Below are positions 52,481-61,040 of a stretch of 62,764 nt of DNA, piece by piece. The number at the start of each line of letters is the position of its first letter. The first letter of the stretch is position 1. The position numbers were made by a program, and so were the translations under genes. The notes beneath the pieces are model-generated. The model was not told the DNA's origin. It did no database searches and was given only the letters and a program-made list of their open reading frames with translations. Source of the DNA: a virus (taxonomy: Duplodnaviria; Heunggongvirae; Uroviricota; Caudoviricetes); IMG/VR virus record IMGVR_UViG_2516143071_000006; one strand, written 5' to 3'.

Positions 52481-53023
52481 GTGGCTAAAAAAGGCGACTT
52501 TAAGCCTACCCAGAAAGAGGTTGACCAAGCTATTACTCGCTTGAAAAAAGTAACTTTTAGCGGAGTTACATGGACCGGAAGTGAGGGACGAACCCCAATC
52601 TGGTTTAAATTGGATCTCAAAGCTTTTGATGAAATTGGCAACCCAATCACAGGCATAAGATTTATGCTTCACTGGCGTCCTCCTATCGTTGAAGGGGTGG
52701 ATATAGTGAAGATTTCATTTGTGATGTTTCTTCATGACAGGCGCATTTACGCGCTTGATCCGTACCCTGCGGATAACAAGCCACACCGTAATAAATCTAT
52801 AGTGAACCATCCAGATTTTGTTGAGGTGGCTCGAGGTCCTCACTATCACATGTACTTCGAATCAGCTGGGGAAGAAATTGCACTTAAGCTTGAAACGAAC
52901 ATCAAGCCAGATGATTTTTTTGGCTACTGGAATTATTTTTGCGAGGCGCTTAATATCATATATGAAGGCAGCCCACCTTTACCTAATCAAGATAAATCAG
53001 GTCAGTTATCATGGGAAATGTAA
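52481..53023 (+). CDS. Unknown protein, first gene of a two-gene module in the rexA/rexB position
   Basis: 180-aa ORF 46 nt downstream of cI, co-oriented; AT-rich; no recognisable family. Confidence 0.6.
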   Translation: MAKKGDFKPTQKEVDQAITRLKKVTFSGVTWTGSEGRTPIWFKLDLKAFDEIGNPITGIRFMLHWRPPIVEGVDIVKISFVMFLHDRRIYALDPYPADNKPHRNKSIVNHPDFVEVARGPHYHMYFESAGEEIALKLETNIKPDDFFGYWNYFCEALNIIYEGSPPLPNQDKSGQLSWEM

Positions 53024-53787
53024 CGTGTTCAACAGTCATATCTAAGCTCGGGTTTGAATGCCACCCAATGAGCGACACGTTGCTGCGCGTTATTAGTCCA
53101 TTCACATACTACGATGATTGTGAGCAGATAAGTGTATTCGTTCAAGAGATGAGTGGTCAGTATAGGGTTACAGACTACTGCGATACATTGATGAATATTG
53201 AATCACGCGGCATCCACCTGACTAAAAAGAAAATTGATCTGATCAGGTCATCACTCGCTTCGCAAGGAATTTCATTAAATGACTCTGGAGAGATATCTGC
53301 GTGGGCAGATGAGTCGTCCGTTGGACAGGTAACTGCAAATGTTATTCGTGGTGGGATTCTTGCATCCGCCCAAACTGCTGATTGGTATGCTGAGGTCAAA
53401 GACGATAAGTTCGAAAAATGTGTAATCAGTTACTTAAAATCAGCAGGGCTTGGGAAGCGACTAGCCTTAAAGGAAAAAGTGAAAGGTATTAGTGGGCATA
53501 ACATTACTGTTCCGTTAACGCTAAGGAATGAGTCTCGACTAATACCACCAAAACGCGGGTTTACGGTAAGCCTTGCCAGCAGTAAGGGATGGAATACTGC
53601 CCACTCAACAGTTGGGAAGATTGTTGACTTAAGTCAGGTCGTTCCTGACATAAACAATAGATTTGTAATAGTTGACAGCGATGGGTTAACACCTGAGCTA
53701 CAGCAACTATCACTACTATTTAATGATACCGCACGAGTGTTGCCATTCCATACCAGAGACTCTTGGATTGAGTCTCTGGTAGCCTAG
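53011..53787 (+). CDS. Unknown protein, second gene of the module in the rexA/rexB position
   Basis: 258-aa ORF overlapping the upstream gene by 13 nt; ends about 180 bp before OL/pL. Confidence 0.6.
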   Translation: MGNVTCSTVISKLGFECHPMSDTLLRVISPFTYYDDCEQISVFVQEMSGQYRVTDYCDTLMNIESRGIHLTKKKIDLIRSSLASQGISLNDSGEISAWADESSVGQVTANVIRGGILASAQTADWYAEVKDDKFEKCVISYLKSAGLGKRLALKEKVKGISGHNITVPLTLRNESRLIPPKRGFTVSLASSKGWNTAHSTVGKIVDLSQVVPDINNRFVIVDSDGLTPELQQLSLLFNDTARVLPFHTRDSWIESLVA

Positions 53788-53970: not shown

Positions 53971-54039
53971 AACCATCTGCGGTGATAAATTATCTCTGGC
54001 GGTGTTGACATAAATACCACTGGCGGTGATACTAAACAC
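53971..54039 (+). promoter_or_regulatory. OL operator with pL promoter, lambda-type (OL3, OL2, OL1; -35 TTGACA, -10 GATACT)
   Basis: accatctgcggtgataaattatctctggcggtgttgacataaataccactggcggtgatact matches lambda OL/pL as remembered. Confidence 0.85.
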
Positions 54040-54281: not shown

Positions 54282-54665
54282 ATGACACGCAGAACTCAGT
54301 TCAAAGGCAATTCACGCTCTCATCGTCGTGAGCGTTTAAAGGCAAAGGCATTAGCTAACGGCGTGCTGGCCCGCGAAGAAGCAATAAGTTCAGAAGTATT
54401 ACACCGCCCTACTCTAAGCAGAGCGCAGATTCAGGCTAAAGGTACTCACGAAACGCCTGAGCGCATAGAAGACGCTAAGCCAATTAAGTTCATGGCACAG
54501 GACGTGATCTGGCAACAGAAAGAATACAGACGCAATCTGGAGCGAGCAGCCATTGTGTACGCGAATGAGTTTGGACATAAGCAACCAGAAACTGGTGTAT
54601 GTCTTCCAAACGTAGCCATTTACGCGGCAGGCTACCGGAAATCAAAACAACTGACGGCGAGGTGA
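54282..54665 (+). CDS. N: N antiterminator (P22 gene 24-like, not lambda N)
   Basis: Arg-rich motif NSRSHRRERLKAKA; C-terminus VAIYAAGYRKSKQLTAR; first gene after pL. Confidence 0.75.
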   Translation: MTRRTQFKGNSRSHRRERLKAKALANGVLAREEAISSEVLHRPTLSRAQIQAKGTHETPERIEDAKPIKFMAQDVIWQQKEYRRNLERAAIVYANEFGHKQPETGVCLPNVAIYAAGYRKSKQLTAR

Positions 54666-55382
54666 TTGATGACCACGCCTTCAGTTTTGCCGCAAAAATT
54701 ATGGCGTCCGCTTGCAGAGATTAAAAACTTCGTTGAAAAAATGCCTGATGGAGTTCGCCTTACGGAAGTTACTAAAAAAGTTAAGACATTTGCCGAACTG
54801 TCAGGAAAGGAGAGAAACCAGCTCATAGATTTTATCGATAAACGGGAAAGCATCATTGTATTTAAGGTCAGAAAAGAAGGTTCTGGTAACGGAGTAACCT
54901 TTTTCCGCCACAAAAAATATGGATATCCCAAACGGGAAGGAAACGTCACAATCATTAAGGACCTTCAATCAAAATTATGTACCAGATGCGGGCAGACAAA
55001 ATCAGTCAATGATTTTTATTCAGATGCCAGCAAGCGTGACGGGAGAGCCATTTATTGCAAGAAGTGCGAATCTGCAATGAAACGCTCACGCAGAGAATGC
55101 AACAAATTAATTCTGCAACAACAGGAACCTGAAATGAATAACCTCAAAGCAGTTTCACCTTCACCAGAAATACTCAGAAAACAGGCTGAAGAATTGCTGA
55201 AAGCCGCCGAAATTGCGGAGAAAAAACGCCAGGAAGATGATGCATTCAACAAAAAACTTGCGCCCTTAAAACTTGAAATTCTTCAGGCCGCCGGAAAAAT
55301 GCAGCTTAAACTGGACGAATTCATCGACTGTATGGATGAAATGAATAAAGCAGTTCAGAAGCTTAAAGAGCTGACCGCCTGA
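54666..55382 (+). CDS. Hypothetical protein with a zinc-ribbon motif and coiled-coil C-terminus
   Basis: 238-aa AT-rich ORF directly after N; CTRCG...CKKCES. Confidence 0.5.
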   Translation: MMTTPSVLPQKLWRPLAEIKNFVEKMPDGVRLTEVTKKVKTFAELSGKERNQLIDFIDKRESIIVFKVRKEGSGNGVTFFRHKKYGYPKREGNVTIIKDLQSKLCTRCGQTKSVNDFYSDASKRDGRAIYCKKCESAMKRSRRECNKLILQQQEPEMNNLKAVSPSPEILRKQAEELLKAAEIAEKKRQEDDAFNKKLAPLKLEILQAAGKMQLKLDEFIDCMDEMNKAVQKLKELTA

Positions 55383-55773: not shown

Positions 55774-55951
55774 CAGCGTCGAGTTTTTCATCAAAAAATG
55801 ATTCAAATGCATCGTAAAATACGGCAATAGCACCGCCCTTATCTACCGCGGCAGGAACTGCCTTTTGAGGTATATCTTTCTCCCTGAATTGTGTGTTGTA
55901 GGTATCGACAGCCAGCCGCATCAGAAACATCACTTTTTCTTCTTGTGTCAT
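55742..55951 (-). CDS. Hypothetical small protein, antisense to the pL operon
   Basis: 69-aa ORF convergent with the upstream gene. Confidence 0.3.
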   Translation of the reverse strand: MTQEEKVMFLMRLAVDTYNTQFREKDIPQKAVPAAVDKGGAIAVFYDAFESFFDEKLDAVSDFGTSSNK

Positions 55952-56190
55952 AAATTCACTCTCCTTACGGGGTTTGTAGTTGAGGAGTTCTCCACGGGTG
56001 AGGTGGAGATCGTGCGCCGGACACGGGTGAGTTCCGGCACTCTCAGTTTACTGAACAGACATTACCCTGAAAGCCAGGGTACAACACGAAAGTGCACGGC
56101 GAAGACTCTTACCCATTGAAGGCTTGTCGTTAGATTTCTTCGACCGTGCGCTTCCGGTTGTGAATAACAACATTGCTGTGTGTAGCCCTT

Positions 56191-56232
56191 GGCGGACATC
56201 GGTTTGCCGATTGCTGATGTCCGCCCTTTTTA
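56191..56232 (+). terminator. Intrinsic terminator inside the pL operon (tL-like)
   Basis: ggcggacatc...gatgtccgcc stem followed by ctttttaaag. Confidence 0.5.
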
Positions 56233-56389
56233 AAGTGAATTTTGTGATGCGGTGAATGCGGCTATGCGCACGCGGAACAGTTAAACCGACAGGATGTCAC
56301 GGAAAGTCATCGTCCCCTGACCCGGCGTTAGTTGTTAACTGGTTAACGTCACCCGGAGGCACCAGGCACCGCATCAACAAAGTTCATTT

Positions 56390-56629
56390 GTGAAAATGGA
56401 GATAATTATGATTGCTCATCACTTCGGAACTGATGAAATACCACGTCAGTGCGTGACGCCTGGCGATTATGTTCTTCATGAAGGTCGGACATATATCGCT
56501 TCAGCAAACAATATTGAAAAGAGAAAACTCTATATTCGTAACTTCACAACAAAAACATGCATTACCGACTGCATGATTAAAGTTTTCATCGGGCGCGATG
56601 GCTTACCCGTAAAAGCAGCGTCGTTGTGA
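56390..56629 (+). CDS. Hypothetical small protein
   Basis: 79-aa ORF; start may be the internal Met at 56408. Confidence 0.4.
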
Positions 56630-56712: not shown

Positions 56713-57099
56713 ATGAAAGAACTTGCGCAAAATGAAATATTTTCCAAAACCAGTCCTGATGCAATAAATGAACTCAAAGAAATTGCAGAACGCATCAGTA
56801 AAATATGCAAAGAATACAAAATCGACTTTGTATTTTCTTTTTCAGTGCTTACAGAAGTTGGAAATAACGAATATAAGGACAGTCGTTTTGTTTTATGTGG
56901 GTTAAATGGCAAAACACCAAGCCCATATATTCATGCTGCACGTGAAGTTGTCAGAAGCAACATTGGAGTACAACAAATCCATACACTTGCACAGGCTCTT
57001 GAGTTTGCAAGAGAAAATTCTGAGTGCGACTGCCCTGAATGCCAGCACGAAAAGGGAAAAACAACTCACAAAACAGCAAACCAGGCAACCTTCCACTGA
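56713..57099 (+). CDS. Hypothetical protein with a C-terminal Cys/His cluster
   Basis: 128 aa; ECDCPECQHEKGK. Confidence 0.45.
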   Translation: MKELAQNEIFSKTSPDAINELKEIAERISKICKEYKIDFVFSFSVLTEVGNNEYKDSRFVLCGLNGKTPSPYIHAAREVVRSNIGVQQIHTLAQALEFARENSECDCPECQHEKGKTTHKTANQATFH

Positions 57100-57206
57100 A
57101 ATAAAAATCCGGCAGCGCAGGCTACCGGATTTCTCCCTGCGTCACCGTATTCGGAGAAATCAGACAAAGGGCCGCTAATTCTAATCCAGCCAGAGGTTTA
57201 AATACA

Positions 57207-59279
57207 ATGAGCGCTGATAAACAGACTTTTGCACTACACTGCGAAGCAAAAAACGATAAAGTCAGAAAACGCCTTGGCATCAAAGGCGGTTTTTTCTGGA
57301 CCGAGGCCAGAAAACTTTCTGTCGCAGTTTCCCGCTGCATTGCAGCCATGGACGATGCAGGCTACGACGAGGATGATTTCAAAAAACCCGTTCGCGTAAA
57401 TTTCCCCGTCGTGAATGACCTTCCACCGGAAGGCGTGTTTGATACTGAATTCTGCAACCGCTATGAAAAAGGCGGTAACGATGGCATCACCATGATGGCT
57501 ATCCCCTTCGATGACAACATCAACGGTGAAGATGCCACAACTGCTGGCGATGACAACGATAACCTGGACGGAACTATTCCGGATGATGTGGAGAAAAGCG
57601 AATCCCCGGACAGCGACGATGACTGTTCTGAGTGTGAAATTCCCGTCGCCACTCTGAGCCTTACTCATCGCTTCCTTCACCTCTTCTTATTCAGCAAAGA
57701 TGAAGATGGAAAATACCGGCATCATGCCACACCAGAACAACGCAATAACGTGATCCGTATGGAGATGGACACAGAGGACAGTTACCTTCAGAGCCTGCTT
57801 ACTGCTGTGCGCGCCGCGCATCATGAACTGGATAAACTGACGAACTATCACCTTAGTCGCCTGGCTGAATCTGTAGGGAAAGCATTCCCCCACTCTGCAA
57901 ATCATCGCATCAGCCCGGCTGAATTCGACAAGTTCATTTCCACCTGGATGAAAACTGACTACCTTGATCAGGGCCTGCTGACAAAAGAATGGCAGAACGG
58001 AAATTATGTTTCAGGCATTACCCGTACGCCTTCCGGTGCTAACGCTGGCGGCGGAAATATTACCGATCGTGGTGAAGGATTCAAACATGATAAGACATCA
58101 CTCGCACGAGATGTAGCCACCGGCGTTCTGGCCCGTTCAATGGATGTGGATATTTATAACCTGCACCCAGCACACGCAAAACGCGTTGAAGAAATCGTGT
58201 CAGAGAATAAGCCGCCCTTTTCTGTTTTTCGCGACAAATTTATCGCCATGCCCGGTGGGCTGGATTATTCCCGCGCCATTGTGGTGGCTTCCGTGAAAGA
58301 AGCACCAATCGGCATTGAGGCCATCCCGGCACGCGTGACTGAATATCTCAACAAAGTGTTGACCGAAACCGATCACACTAACCCGGATCCGGAAATCGTG
58401 GAAATTGCCTGCGGTCGCTCATCAGCACCGATGCCGCAGCGCGGAACAGCAGAAGGAAAACATGGCGATGAAGAAAAGCAACAAGCATCGGACACAATGG
58501 CTAATGAACAGGCAGCGCCTGAATCAGTGGAAGAAATTCCAGTTAAACATAATGAGGACACGCAATCACTGGAAAATGTCTCATCTGTAGAAACGAAATA
58601 CCAGGAACTGAGGGAGGAACTCAATAAAGCCAGGGAAAACATCCCCCCAAAAAATCCAGTCGATGCCGACAAATTACTGGCTGCCTCGCGTGGAGAATTC
58701 GTTGAAGGCATCAGTAACCCTGCTGATCCGAAGTGGGTTAAGGGGATCCAGACTCGCGACACTGAGGACCAGAATCAGTCCAAAGTGGAACAAATTGCCC
58801 CAGAAGCGGGACAAAACAGCCCGGATACGCAACAAAACGGGCCAGAAGAGCAACAGCCAGGGCCAGTAATGCAACAGGAAGTGGAAAAGGTTTGCACCAC
58901 ATGCAGTCAGAACGGTGGCGGCCATTGCCCTGACTGTGGTCCAGTAATGGGAGATGAAACTTACGCTGAAACTTTTGGAGAAAATGACGCCGCTGATGGA
59001 GAAGACTCAGCACAAACTGAGGAGAAGATCATTCAGGAAAACGCTGTTGATGCCGCTCAGGAGGGCGAAACCGTTGTTCAGAACGAGCCAGGCAGTGATA
59101 CGTCCGGCGATGACGCCAATTCTGAGCCAGTAACTCTCGACTGGAAAAGACAGCTCGTGATTGCCGCCGTCTATGGTTTGTGCGCCAACCCCGCATGTAT
59201 AGCCACAGCGCCAGCAATCCCTGATATCGCCATCATGATTGCCAACAGGCTTGAAAATTTCGGAGGTGATAAATCATGA
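57207..59279 (+). CDS. Large acidic hypothetical protein (690 aa) immediately upstream of gam
   Basis: Long ORF with Asp/Glu-rich tracts and a [16 protein letters not shown] motif; stop overlaps the gam start (ATGA). Confidence 0.6.
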
Positions 59280-59572
59280 ATGCCTGGCTTATCCCCGATC
59301 GCATTGAAGAGCAGTCATGGGCACGACACTACCAGCAAATTGCCCGTGAAGAAACTGAAGCTGAGCTGGCAGACGACCTGGAAAAAGGTCTGCCCCAACA
59401 CCTGTTTGAATCGCTATGCATCGATAATCTGCAACGTCACGGGGCCAGCAAAAAAGCTATTTCCCGTGCATTTGATGACGATGTCGATTTTCAGGAACGC
59501 ATGGCAGAACACATCCGCTACATGGCTGAAACCATCGCCCGTCACCAAATTAATATTGATTCAGAGGTATAA
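59276..59572 (+). CDS. gam: Gam (RecBCD inhibitor), lambda-type
   Basis: [22 protein letters not shown]...[13 protein letters not shown]...[14 protein letters not shown]...[11 protein letters not shown] resembles lambda Gam. Confidence 0.9.
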
Positions 59573-59577
59573 AACGG

Positions 59578-60363
59578 ATGAGTACAGCACTCGCAACGCT
59601 GGCAGGGAAGCTGGCTGAACGTGTCGGCATGGATTCTGTCGACCCACAGGAACTAATCACCACTCTTCGCCAGACGGCATTTAAAGGTGATGCCAGCGAT
59701 GCGCAATTTATCGCATTGTTGATCGTCGCCAACCAGTACGGCCTTAATCCCTGGACGAAAGAAATTTACGCCTTCCCTGACAAGCAGAACGGCATCGTTC
59801 CGGTGGTTGGCGTTGATGGCTGGTCCCGCATTATCAATGAAAACCAGCAGTTTGATGGCATGGACTTTGAGCAGGACAATGAGTCCTGTACATGCCGGAT
59901 TTACCGCAAAGATCGCAATCACCCGATCTGCGTTACCGAGTGGATGGATGAATGTCGCCGCGCACCATTCAAAACCCGCGAAGGCAGAGAAATCACCGGA
60001 CCGTGGCAGTCGCATCCCAAACGGATGTTACGGCACAAAGCCATGATTCAGTGTGCTCGCCTGGCCTTCGGATTTGCTGGCATCTATGACAAGGATGAAG
60101 CCGAGCGTATTGTCGAAAATACTGCATATACTACAGAACGTCAGCCGGAACGCGACATCACCCCGGTTAACGAAGAAACCATGTCGGAAATTAACGCCCT
60201 TCTTACTTCCATGGAAAAAACGTGGGATGACGACCTGTTGCCGCTCTGTTCCCAGATTTTTCGCCGCAACATTTACACATCTTCAGAACTAACACAGGCT
60301 GAAGCTGTGAAGGTTCTTGGATTCCTGAAACAGAAAGTCACAGAGCAGAAGGTAGCAGCATGA
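59578..60363 (+). CDS. bet: Bet (Red-beta single-strand annealing protein), lambda-type
   Basis: [66 protein letters not shown]... near-identical to lambda Bet as remembered. Confidence 0.95.
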
Positions 60364-61040
60364 CACCGGACATTATCCTGCAACGTACAGGGATCGACGT
60401 GAGAGCTGTCGAACAGGGGGATGATGCGTGGCACAAATTACGGCTCGGCGTCATCACCGCTTCAGAAGTTCACAACGTGATAGCAAAACCCCGCTCAGGA
60501 AAGAAATGGCCTGACATGAAAATGTCCTACTTCCACACCCTGCTTGCTGAGGTTTGCACCGGTGTGGCTCCGGAAGTTAATGCCAAAGCACTGGCCTGGG
60601 GAAAACAATACGAGAACGACGCCAGAGTCCTGTTTGAGTTCACCTCCGGCGTGAATGTTACTGAATCCCCGATTATCTATCGCGACGAAAGTATGCGTAC
60701 AGCCTGCTCTCCCGACGGTTTATGCAGTGACGGCAACGGCCTTGAGCTGAAATGTCCGTTTACCTCCCGGGATTTCATGAAATTCCGGCTCGGTGGTTTC
60801 GAGGCCATAAAATCAGCTTACATGGCCCAGGTGCAATTCAGCATGTGGGTGACTCGAAAAGATGCCTGGTACTTTGCCAACTATGACCCGCGCATGAAGC
60901 GTGAAGGCCTGCATTATGTCGTGGTCGAGCGGGATGAAAAATACATGGCTGGTTTTGACGAGATGGTGCCGGAGTTCATCGAAAAAATGGACGAAGCACT
61001 GGCTGAAATTAGTTTTGTATTTGGGGAGCAATGGCGATAG
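60360..61040 (+). CDS. exo: Exo (Red-alpha 5'-3' exonuclease), lambda-type
   Basis: [50 protein letters not shown]... near-identical to lambda Exo as remembered. Confidence 0.95.

Follow-up and report, generated by a model that had tools for sequence, protein, structure and literature searches.

A predicted nuclease-less form of RecE encoded directly ahead of gam in a phage pL operon

The window analysed here is the whole stretch of 62,764 nucleotides (nt) in the phage record IMGVR_UViG_2516143071_000006. At 57207..59279 on its plus strand lies an open reading frame (ORF) of 690 amino acids (aa), with an ATG start and a stop codon, which runs directly into the gene gam. Given the base composition of the window, the number of ORFs as long as this one that would arise by chance in six frames is about 3e-9. 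The encoded protein is acidic, with 125 Asp and Glu as compared to 67 Lys and Arg, and the acidity is concentrated in two segments, aa 101-150 with a net charge of -17 and aa 593-642 with -14. A preliminary description of the DNA had correctly reported the acidic ORF and its overlap with gam. The protein is not an orphan. Its residues 1 to about 600 have clear homology to Rac RecE, to the ~555 residues at the N-terminus of that protein, and every record found is annotated accordingly. The gene itself is already in the public records and named, and what sets it apart is its architecture, which is that of the RecE N-terminal region without the nuclease domain.

The gene, its operon and its homology to RecE

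A GAGG Shine-Dalgarno-like element, read from the sequence at 57193..57196 (+), lies 10 nt 5' of the ATG, and the N-terminus MS(A/T)DK is kept in the homologues. At the other end the stop codon TGA (59277-59279) overlaps the gam ATG (59276-59278) as ATGA, and a putative Shine-Dalgarno sequence for gam, GGAGGTGA, is found at 59262-59269, 6 nt 5' of the gam ATG. Together they lie within the last codons of the ORF (59262..59279, +) and form what appears to be a translational-coupling arrangement. The gam gene (59276..59572, +, 98 aa) matches PF06064 with E=4.8e-65. It is followed by the lambda Red module (59578..61040, +), made up of bet (59578-60363) and exo (60360-61040), and after exo by a DUF4222 gene and int. 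Thus recT is not the neighbour of the ORF, the genes 3' of it being gam, bet and exo.

On the 5' side there is a lambda-pL-like promoter, TTGACA-17-GATACT, at 54005-54033, approximately 3.2 kb from the ORF, then an N gene (PF25694) and two genes without assigned function. These are followed by a KilR-type kil (56390-56629, +, phrog_294), 90% identical to Rac KilR, and a 128-aa gene without assigned function (56713-57099, +, phrog_2016), whose synteny with kil and the ORF is conserved. We tried the 128-aa gene as a homologue of RacC and rejected this, as there is no similarity to RacC. In lambda, it is kil that immediately precedes gam, and Gam is an inhibitor of host nucleases. The preliminary description placed the ORF in the pL operon, which agrees with the promoter and N upstream of it, and in the place of kil, which is wrong, kil being present two genes upstream. 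Unlike a kil substitute, the ORF is found in a phage where a KilR-type kil is present and Gam is normal, with 98 aa. The 690-aa gene belongs to the pL operon and overlaps gam, and it does not replace kil. The analogy to lambda Kil, CIII and Gam is one of position only, there is no sequence similarity between any of them and the 690-aa ORF. A tblastn search of the window for lambda-cIII-like, kil and ral ORFs gave no match in the pL region, which we take as a lead only.

The relation to RecE is seen with several profiles. Pfam PF06630 (Exonuc_VIII) matches with E=1.3e-12 and 48.4 bits against a cutoff of 25, phrog_607 is matched at profile positions 1-618 of 883, and the NCBIfam equivalog for exonuclease VIII, NF007259, at positions 1-598 of 877 with 738 bits, which is below its curated cutoff of 1269. 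In BLASTP against K-12 RecE, aa 51-601 of the ORF align to RecE 43-555 with 53% identity (E=2e-178), and nothing aligns beyond. The identity rises to about 85-90% through the core, the helix region and the Cys knuckle described below (aa ~250-590), and both the DNA alignment and BLASTP show that the recE homology stops just past ...TYAETFGE. The first ~290 nt of the ORF are shared at about 81% with many prophage 'exonuclease' genes.

The nuclease domain was searched for specifically. PF12684, the PD-(D/E)XK nuclease domain, was not found in the 690-aa ORF, while RecE and a 1049-aa family member (P0117) were both positive in the same test. The ORF has no match among PDB sequences, and the RecE nuclease domain has already been crystallised (review PMC11611040). 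Where the PD-(D/E)XK domain would be there is a conserved tail, and therefore the protein, as judged from its sequence, cannot be exonuclease VIII; exonuclease activity is predicted to be absent. It is thus the N-terminal region of RecE, lacking the nuclease, a region described as "of unknown function" or "unclear" in two reviews from 2023 (PMC11611040, PMC11610958).

An AlphaFold2 model of the protein was built with a family alignment of 102 sequences. It shows a globular scaffold in two parts. Part A, aa 1-102 (57207..57512, +), is a strand-helix-strand-helix unit with a predicted local distance difference test score (pLDDT) of 82-97 and a ratio of nonsynonymous to synonymous substitution rates (dN/dS) of 0.09-0.26. 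Part B, aa 145-418 (57639..58460, +), is mostly helical (pLDDT 88-98, dN/dS 0.07-0.18). They are separated by an acidic disordered insert, aa 103-144 (57513..57638, +; pLDDT <50, net charge about -17), which is under relaxed selection (dN/dS 0.3-1.0) and has low occupancy in the family alignment. Inside part B lies the family-wide core, aa ~265-410 (nt 57999-58436, +), with the pattern SG..GGG..TDR ... PG.LD(Y/F)SRA ... LTE.DH.NPDP, which is present in the ORF, where the last motif is of the form LTETDHxNPDP. The core is the segment most widely matched among the 207 representatives of the family. The residues conserved throughout the family, K15, D71, P73, D79, D188, W262, T286-D287-R288, E387 and P393, are all in the globular scaffold. 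A Foldseek search of the model against BFVD and PDB gave nothing at E<=1e-3, and the family profile had no match among PDB sequences. The ~370-aa globular fold (aa 1-102 and 145-418) is thus confidently predicted by the model, without an informative structural relative in PDB or BFVD.

Downstream of the scaffold the model is mainly disordered. A conserved helix region, aa 458-494 (58578..58688, +), with helices at 458-477 and 487-494, is flanked by disordered linkers, and dN/dS is 0.06-0.12 at aa 466-520. The long disordered stretch is at aa 511-644, and inside it is a CxxC-x9-CxxC knuckle, aa 563-578 (58893..58940, +; pLDDT ~60), which is probably a small Zn-binding element. Next follow the breakpoint to recE and an acidic disordered linker, aa 579-644 (58941..59138, +; pLDDT ~30-38, dN/dS 0.24-0.47), and finally the C-terminal tail, aa 645-690 (59139..59276, +), a two-helix hairpin which replaces the RecE nuclease domain and has a dN/dS of 0.07-0.23.

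The Cys motif was the feature highlighted in the preliminary description. It is indeed present, but it does not hold the importance it was given. In RecE it reads CNACGQTGGDNCPDCG, inside the BLASTP alignment with the ORF, and it is conserved in Rac RecE and in the proteins with a DEDD exonuclease (see below). Within the family it is confined to the E. coli-like clade, with 12 carriers among 101 members and 89 that lack it. One natural copy of 663 aa (P0120, L011:5001-6992) has an in-frame deletion of 26 aa that takes out exactly the knuckle and is otherwise intact and syntenic. The motif is inherited from RecE and, given its rarity and this deletion, is not the key feature of the protein.

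Conservation, the C-terminal tail and the modular family

The ORF is 100% identical to WP_001271588.1, from an E. coli O104:H4 prophage adjoining ynfG, 99.1% identical to its counterpart in phage PhiR5_2, and about 90% identical in the Shiga toxin (Stx)-converting Shigella phages 75/02 and POCJ13. At least 80% of the gene is held by 98 of 5,426 complete E. coli genomes. In copies with 77-84% protein identity the length stays at 663-700 aa, and both the order kil, 128-130-aa gene, ORF, gam, bet, exo and the 4-nt overlap with gam are retained; for two of the copies (L011 and L012) the 128-130-aa gene was not called. Intact ORFs of 663-700 aa are found across 77-99% identity in hundreds of contigs. 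Lack of conservation, or homology to a housekeeping protein, had been named beforehand as grounds for giving up the preliminary description; length and overlap are kept at 77-99% identity, and the homology is to RecE, a phage recombination protein.

The selection on the gene was estimated with the Nei-Gojobori method, comparing the ORF with four diverged copies. The overall dN/dS is 0.20-0.25, and in the ordered blocks (aa 1-100, 151-410 and 466-520) and the tail (643-690) it is 0.06-0.26, as compared to 0.07-0.13 in the control genes gam and bet and to 0.3-1.0 in the disordered acidic tracts.

A search of 1.84 billion proteins gave 207 family hits, as clusters at 50% identity, with 84 representatives of at least 450 aa. 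Among these 84, the C-terminus is the tail in 21, a PD-(D/E)XK domain in 20 and a DEDD domain in 14; the C-termini of the remaining 29 were matched by none of these three probes. The same scaffold of about 590 aa is found with three different C-termini, a PD-(D/E)XK nuclease, an Rv2179c-like DEDD exonuclease or the tail. The three types are collinear in DNA through ...CPDCG.VMGD.TY.ETF, and the window diverges exactly there, while the RecE type and the DEDD type share about 150 nt more of linker after that point. What emerges is a small, conserved tail domain together with a modular scaffold whose C-terminal effector domains are exchanged. In the searchable literature we found no description of the nuclease-less architecture, the conserved tail module or the three-way C-terminal exchange.

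Rac RecE of K-12 (NP_415866.1, 866 aa) resembles the ORF in having PF06630 and in being encoded in an early-left operon downstream of a KilR-type kil. It differs in its C-terminus, which is the PD-(D/E)XK domain (PF12684; RecE 564/606-866) where the ORF has the acidic linker and 46-aa tail. The genes around it also differ, recT being next to recE and gam-bet-exo next to the ORF, and RacC is unrelated to the 128-aa upstream neighbour. A second relative is the ~813-aa 'exonuclease' of DicB-type prophages (WP_000102181.1, O157:H7; L005:6001-8445). Over aa 1-590, Cys knuckle included, its scaffold has 61% identity to that of the ORF, and like the ORF it is encoded by the last gene of an early-left operon. 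In contrast to the ORF it ends in an Rv2179c-like DEDD 3'-5' exonuclease (PF16473, E=2e-67), and its gene has xis and int directly next to it, without gam or Red genes.

More distant are the YdfE-type proteins of Lelliottia, Buttiauxella, Citrobacter and Cedecea, which share only the core and the tail with the ORF. In a Citrobacter example (L021:5243-7147) the ~150-aa core is 46% identical (E=1e-36) and the tail matches with E=2e-5. Their first ~200 aa are of another, YdfE type, in which BLASTP finds nothing similar to aa 1-250 of the ORF, and they lack the Cys knuckle. Their genes immediately precede xis and int, and gam and Red genes are missing downstream. A precomputed annotation assigns Pfam YdfE_N and YdfE_C to the YdfE-type protein of an Enterobacter asburiae locus (L015). 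In K-12, ydfE is a pseudogene, cut short by the insertion sequence (IS) IS2, and corresponds to the N-terminal part of a YdfE-type protein. We considered K-12 YdfE as a truncated member of the ORF scaffold and rejected it, since the two show no similarity and the full-length YdfE-type proteins share just the core and the tail; BLASTP gave no alignment between the ORF and K-12 YdfE, and the YdfE-type protein of Enterobacter has only a weakly matching motif in common with the ORF.

The tail has the signature (L/F)(T/S)(Y/W)xQQLTIAALQGLCANPA...(D/E)(D/E)(I/L)PxMA, or W(K/R)xQLxIAAxxGLCANPA...IPxxA, and the residues AA..G.C.NP are invariant across 22 diverse tails. It lies within 3-17 residues of the C-terminus in all 21 tail-bearing representatives, and it has no match in Pfam or among PDB sequences. 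In the full-length model its helices are at 646-659 and 662-684 (pLDDT 55-75), and when it was folded alone, with its own alignment of 22 sequences, a helix-turn-helix was again obtained with a mean pLDDT of 76.5. Candidate genes for free-standing tail proteins were also found, of 79 aa in Serratia and of 65-68 aa in cyanobacterial metagenome-assembled genomes (MAGs). The latter are from Spirulina and other cyanobacterial MAGs (L024, L025:4583-4780, L026:1525-1731) and carry the FRQQLIIAAVQGLCANP motif of the tail, although these organisms are very distant from the Enterobacteriaceae. A 54-aa tail ORF in Enterobacter was rejected as an independent gene, as a frameshift in an A-run splits it from a 638-aa gene. 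This is seen in Enterobacter asburiae at L015:5900-6010, where a +1 shift at the A-run (AAACCGAAAAAAAGC) separates the tail from the 638-aa YdfE-type gene; a sequencing error, slippage or decay to a pseudogene may lie behind it.

The tails do not all end in the same way. Some of those in E. coli and Shigella (P0244, P0134, P0122; L028:5001-5234) run past the hairpin and have the tips ...GVTSDERLPDF, DDEHMPDF or DDEHIPDF, whereas the tail in the window ends ...NFGGDKS, without an acidic tip of the LPDF type. We take the acidic ...LPDF tips to resemble ...DDDIPF, the C-terminal tip of the E. coli single-stranded DNA-binding protein, SSB. The tip of SSB recruits host exonucleases and helicases.

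Proposed role and alternative explanations

The explanation we favour as a whole, with about even chances of being correct, is that the gene encodes a maintained nuclease-less protein of the RecE N-terminal type, which acts as an adaptor of the phage recombination module. The globular scaffold would act as a targeting or adaptor module and engage either DNA ends or a host factor of DNA metabolism. In the relatives the same disordered linker joins it covalently to an exonuclease, of one polarity or the other, and in this phage the catalytic partners would be supplied in trans from the co-transcribed Gam-Bet-Exo, the ORF stop overlapping the gam start. The tail hairpin may be a module for protein-protein interaction or oligomerisation which replaces the oligomerising nuclease domain; RecE is a tetramer (PMC11611040). 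The 690-aa protein would then be a non-enzymatic accessory of early-left DNA-end processing and recombination. These assignments, with the scaffold as targeting module, the tail as interaction or oligomerisation module and the partners in trans, are more tentative than the explanation as a whole, and we hold them to be possible at somewhat less than even chances.

A tethering or targeting function in DNA-end processing is the most plausible one for the scaffold because it has been joined repeatedly to exonucleases of opposite polarity and unrelated fold. Furthermore, in two reviews, full-length RecE is reported to be better than the nuclease domain alone for recombination between two linear molecules (PMC11611040, PMC11610958, citing Fu 2012), which also points to the scaffold as a DNA-end tether. 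The constant linkage to gam in E. coli and Shigella fits the adaptor function as well: in the tail form from these species an overlapping gam is always next. After gam come bet-exo, except in Shigella sonnei, where an AAA_24 (PF13479) protein is encoded instead. In the Shigella sonnei locus, a DicB-type prophage (L028:112-9669), the scaffold of the RecE N-terminal type is IS-disrupted into fragments of 530 aa and 77 aa, the latter with the tail; gam follows with a 23-nt overlap, and a 365-aa AAA_24 protein takes the place of bet and exo.

Several observations weigh against the adaptor explanation. At the YdfE-type loci of the four genera the core-and-tail gene is followed by DUF7740, an Rrf2-like gene or xis, and then int, and no gam, bet, exo, recT or recombinase-sized ORF was detected there when we called ORFs ourselves, searched with probes and scanned the adjacent ORFs with Pfam. 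DUF7740, which has the position of gam at these loci, shows no similarity to Gam. As these genes have no adjacent recombinase, the core and tail unit must function independently of one, and a docking of the tail specifically on Gam, Bet or Exo, which we had considered, is weakened. Nor did Foldseek against BFVD and PDB detect a DNA-binding or other informative fold, and the protein is strongly acidic overall. The sole experimental hint on the RecE N-terminal region comes from the fused protein, that is, in cis. The role of the tail in oligomerisation or docking is purely our inference. It is conceivable that the RecE N-terminal region is an autonomous protein, a ~370-aa fold with a dedicated tail, which acts beside Gam as a nuclease-independent DNA-end tether or protector, or as an inhibitor or hijacker of a host factor of DNA metabolism or defence, with the RecE and DEDD forms as fusions. 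We put this forward tentatively, with the odds somewhat against it.

A rival explanation is that the scaffold and tail bind a host factor, for instance a nuclease or a defence sensor, and neutralise or hijack it in a way that does not depend on phage recombination. Its acidic disordered tracts could then mimic nucleic acids, and the RecE and DEDD forms would be secondary fusions. The preliminary description had suggested host takeover or anti-defence, and the idea stays alive because the core and tail unit functions without a phage recombinase, as in the several Enterobacteriaceae where it has neither recombinase nor gam next to it. It is also consistent with the tail as a free protein of about 65 aa, even in cyanobacterial MAGs, with the place of the gene among accessory early-left genes (kil, gam), with the highly acidic disordered segments, with the purifying selection on a scaffold that has no catalytic partner in cis, and with the acidic ...LPDF tip of some tails, which resembles that of SSB. 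On the other side, the 690-aa protein has no match in PADLOC, which is a library of defence and not of anti-defence proteins, and no structural relative. The acidic tracts evolve fast, and in the distant members the linkers before the tail are instead rich in Pro and Lys. Moreover, the scaffold has been fused to exonucleases repeatedly, and in E. coli and Shigella the tail form is constantly linked to gam, both of which speak for DNA-end biology. RecE has been shown to trigger the retron-Sen2 system through degradation of its multicopy single-stranded DNA (msDNA) by the nuclease (bioRxiv 10.1101/2020.06.22.160242), but since it is the nuclease that degrades the msDNA, this phenotype cannot be transferred to the 690-aa protein. 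An autonomous host-directed function is, all in all, less likely than not but a serious rival.

The hydrophobic hairpin could also be inserted in the inner membrane, so that the protein would be a tail-anchored membrane protein with its acidic part tethered there. On the Kyte-Doolittle scale, the 19-residue segment that scores highest anywhere in the protein does fall in the tail, with a mean of 1.75. The segment is merely borderline hydrophobic, though, and is broken up by the invariant N-P and by polar residues, the tails of distant members are amphipathic and more polar (QQLTIAALQGLCANPAY..DD.P), and a soluble helix-turn-helix hairpin is predicted. On these grounds we judged a membrane anchor to be very unlikely.

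Another possibility is that the gene is a decaying remnant of recE, whose 3' part was replaced together with recT by lambda gam-bet-exo, leaving a functionless 5' fragment open. The DNA follows recE collinearly and then breaks off sharply, the operon is a hybrid of Rac and lambda with a KilR 90% identical to the Rac protein, and IS-disrupted copies occur in Shigella sonnei. But the constraint seen in the dN/dS values of 0.20-0.25 is domain-structured, which rules out a decaying fragment, the ORFs are intact over the whole range of identities and contigs, and the tail beyond the breakpoint is itself conserved, constrained and common to the distant YdfE-type proteins. The tail form is also as diversified as the RecE form, 21 as compared to 20 representatives. 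The selection analysis effectively refutes the remnant explanation, which we regard as highly improbable.

Least credible of all, and close to excluded, is that the protein is a true exodeoxyribonuclease VIII (RecE), as it is annotated in GenBank, RefSeq and PHROGs, for which only the database names speak ("exodeoxyribonuclease VIII", "RecE family exodeoxyribonuclease" and, in PHROG, "exonuclease VII"), while the PD-(D/E)XK domain is absent, the NCBIfam score is under the equivalog cutoff and the AlphaFold2 model shows no other nuclease fold. The name exodeoxyribonuclease VIII is unsupported because the domain that defines it was tested for and is absent, and the mis-annotation is systematic, with hundreds of "exodeoxyribonuclease VIII" entries lacking a nuclease domain.

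The gene is a natural separation-of-function allele, in which the N-terminal region is kept alone under purifying selection with lambda Red and Gam in trans. RecE/RecT is a workhorse of recombineering, and it is full-length RecE, not the nuclease domain alone, that is reported to give the efficient linear-linear recombination used for direct cloning. The role of the RecE N-terminus would be directly testable in the carriers, which include phage PhiR5_2, which plates on the K-12 strain MG1655, as well as Stx-converting phages of Shigella and prophages in the pathogenic E. coli O104:H4.

Other observations in the early-left region

A DicF-like small RNA match was found at 56177-56226 (+) of the window, covering the full model 1-52 of Rfam RF00039 with 29.5 bits and E=0.0027, which falls below the gathering score of 48. 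It lies inside a non-coding gap of about 600 nt (55774-56390), 5' of the KilR-type kil, a position like that of dicF ahead of dicB in Qin and of kilS ahead of kilR in Rac. Just 3' of the 128-aa gene, about 75 nt before the ORF start, there is a hairpin at 57106-57131 (+), AAATCCGG...CCGGATTT followed by UUUCUCCCU. As a terminator it looks weak and was rejected, its folding energy not being significant as compared to shuffled sequences (z = -1.3).

The gene right after N (54666-55382, +, 238 aa, phrog_2539) has weak PHROG matches at aa ~100-190 to Lar-like restriction-alleviation, HNH and endonuclease VII zinc-finger regions, and it is a possible anti-restriction candidate in the same operon. 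Between cI and pL, at 52481-53787 (+), there are two overlapping genes of 180 aa and 258 aa (DUF1828), in the position that rexA and rexB have in lambda; they are candidates for prophage-encoded exclusion or defence genes.

The N gene itself is recorded differently among identical sequences. In the O104:H4 RefSeq record (L003:4391-4459) N is only a partial pseudogene of 69 nt, given as 'regulator, missing N-terminus'. The identical region in the window (54282-54665) and in phage PhiR5_2 holds a full N ORF of 127 aa that matches PF25694.

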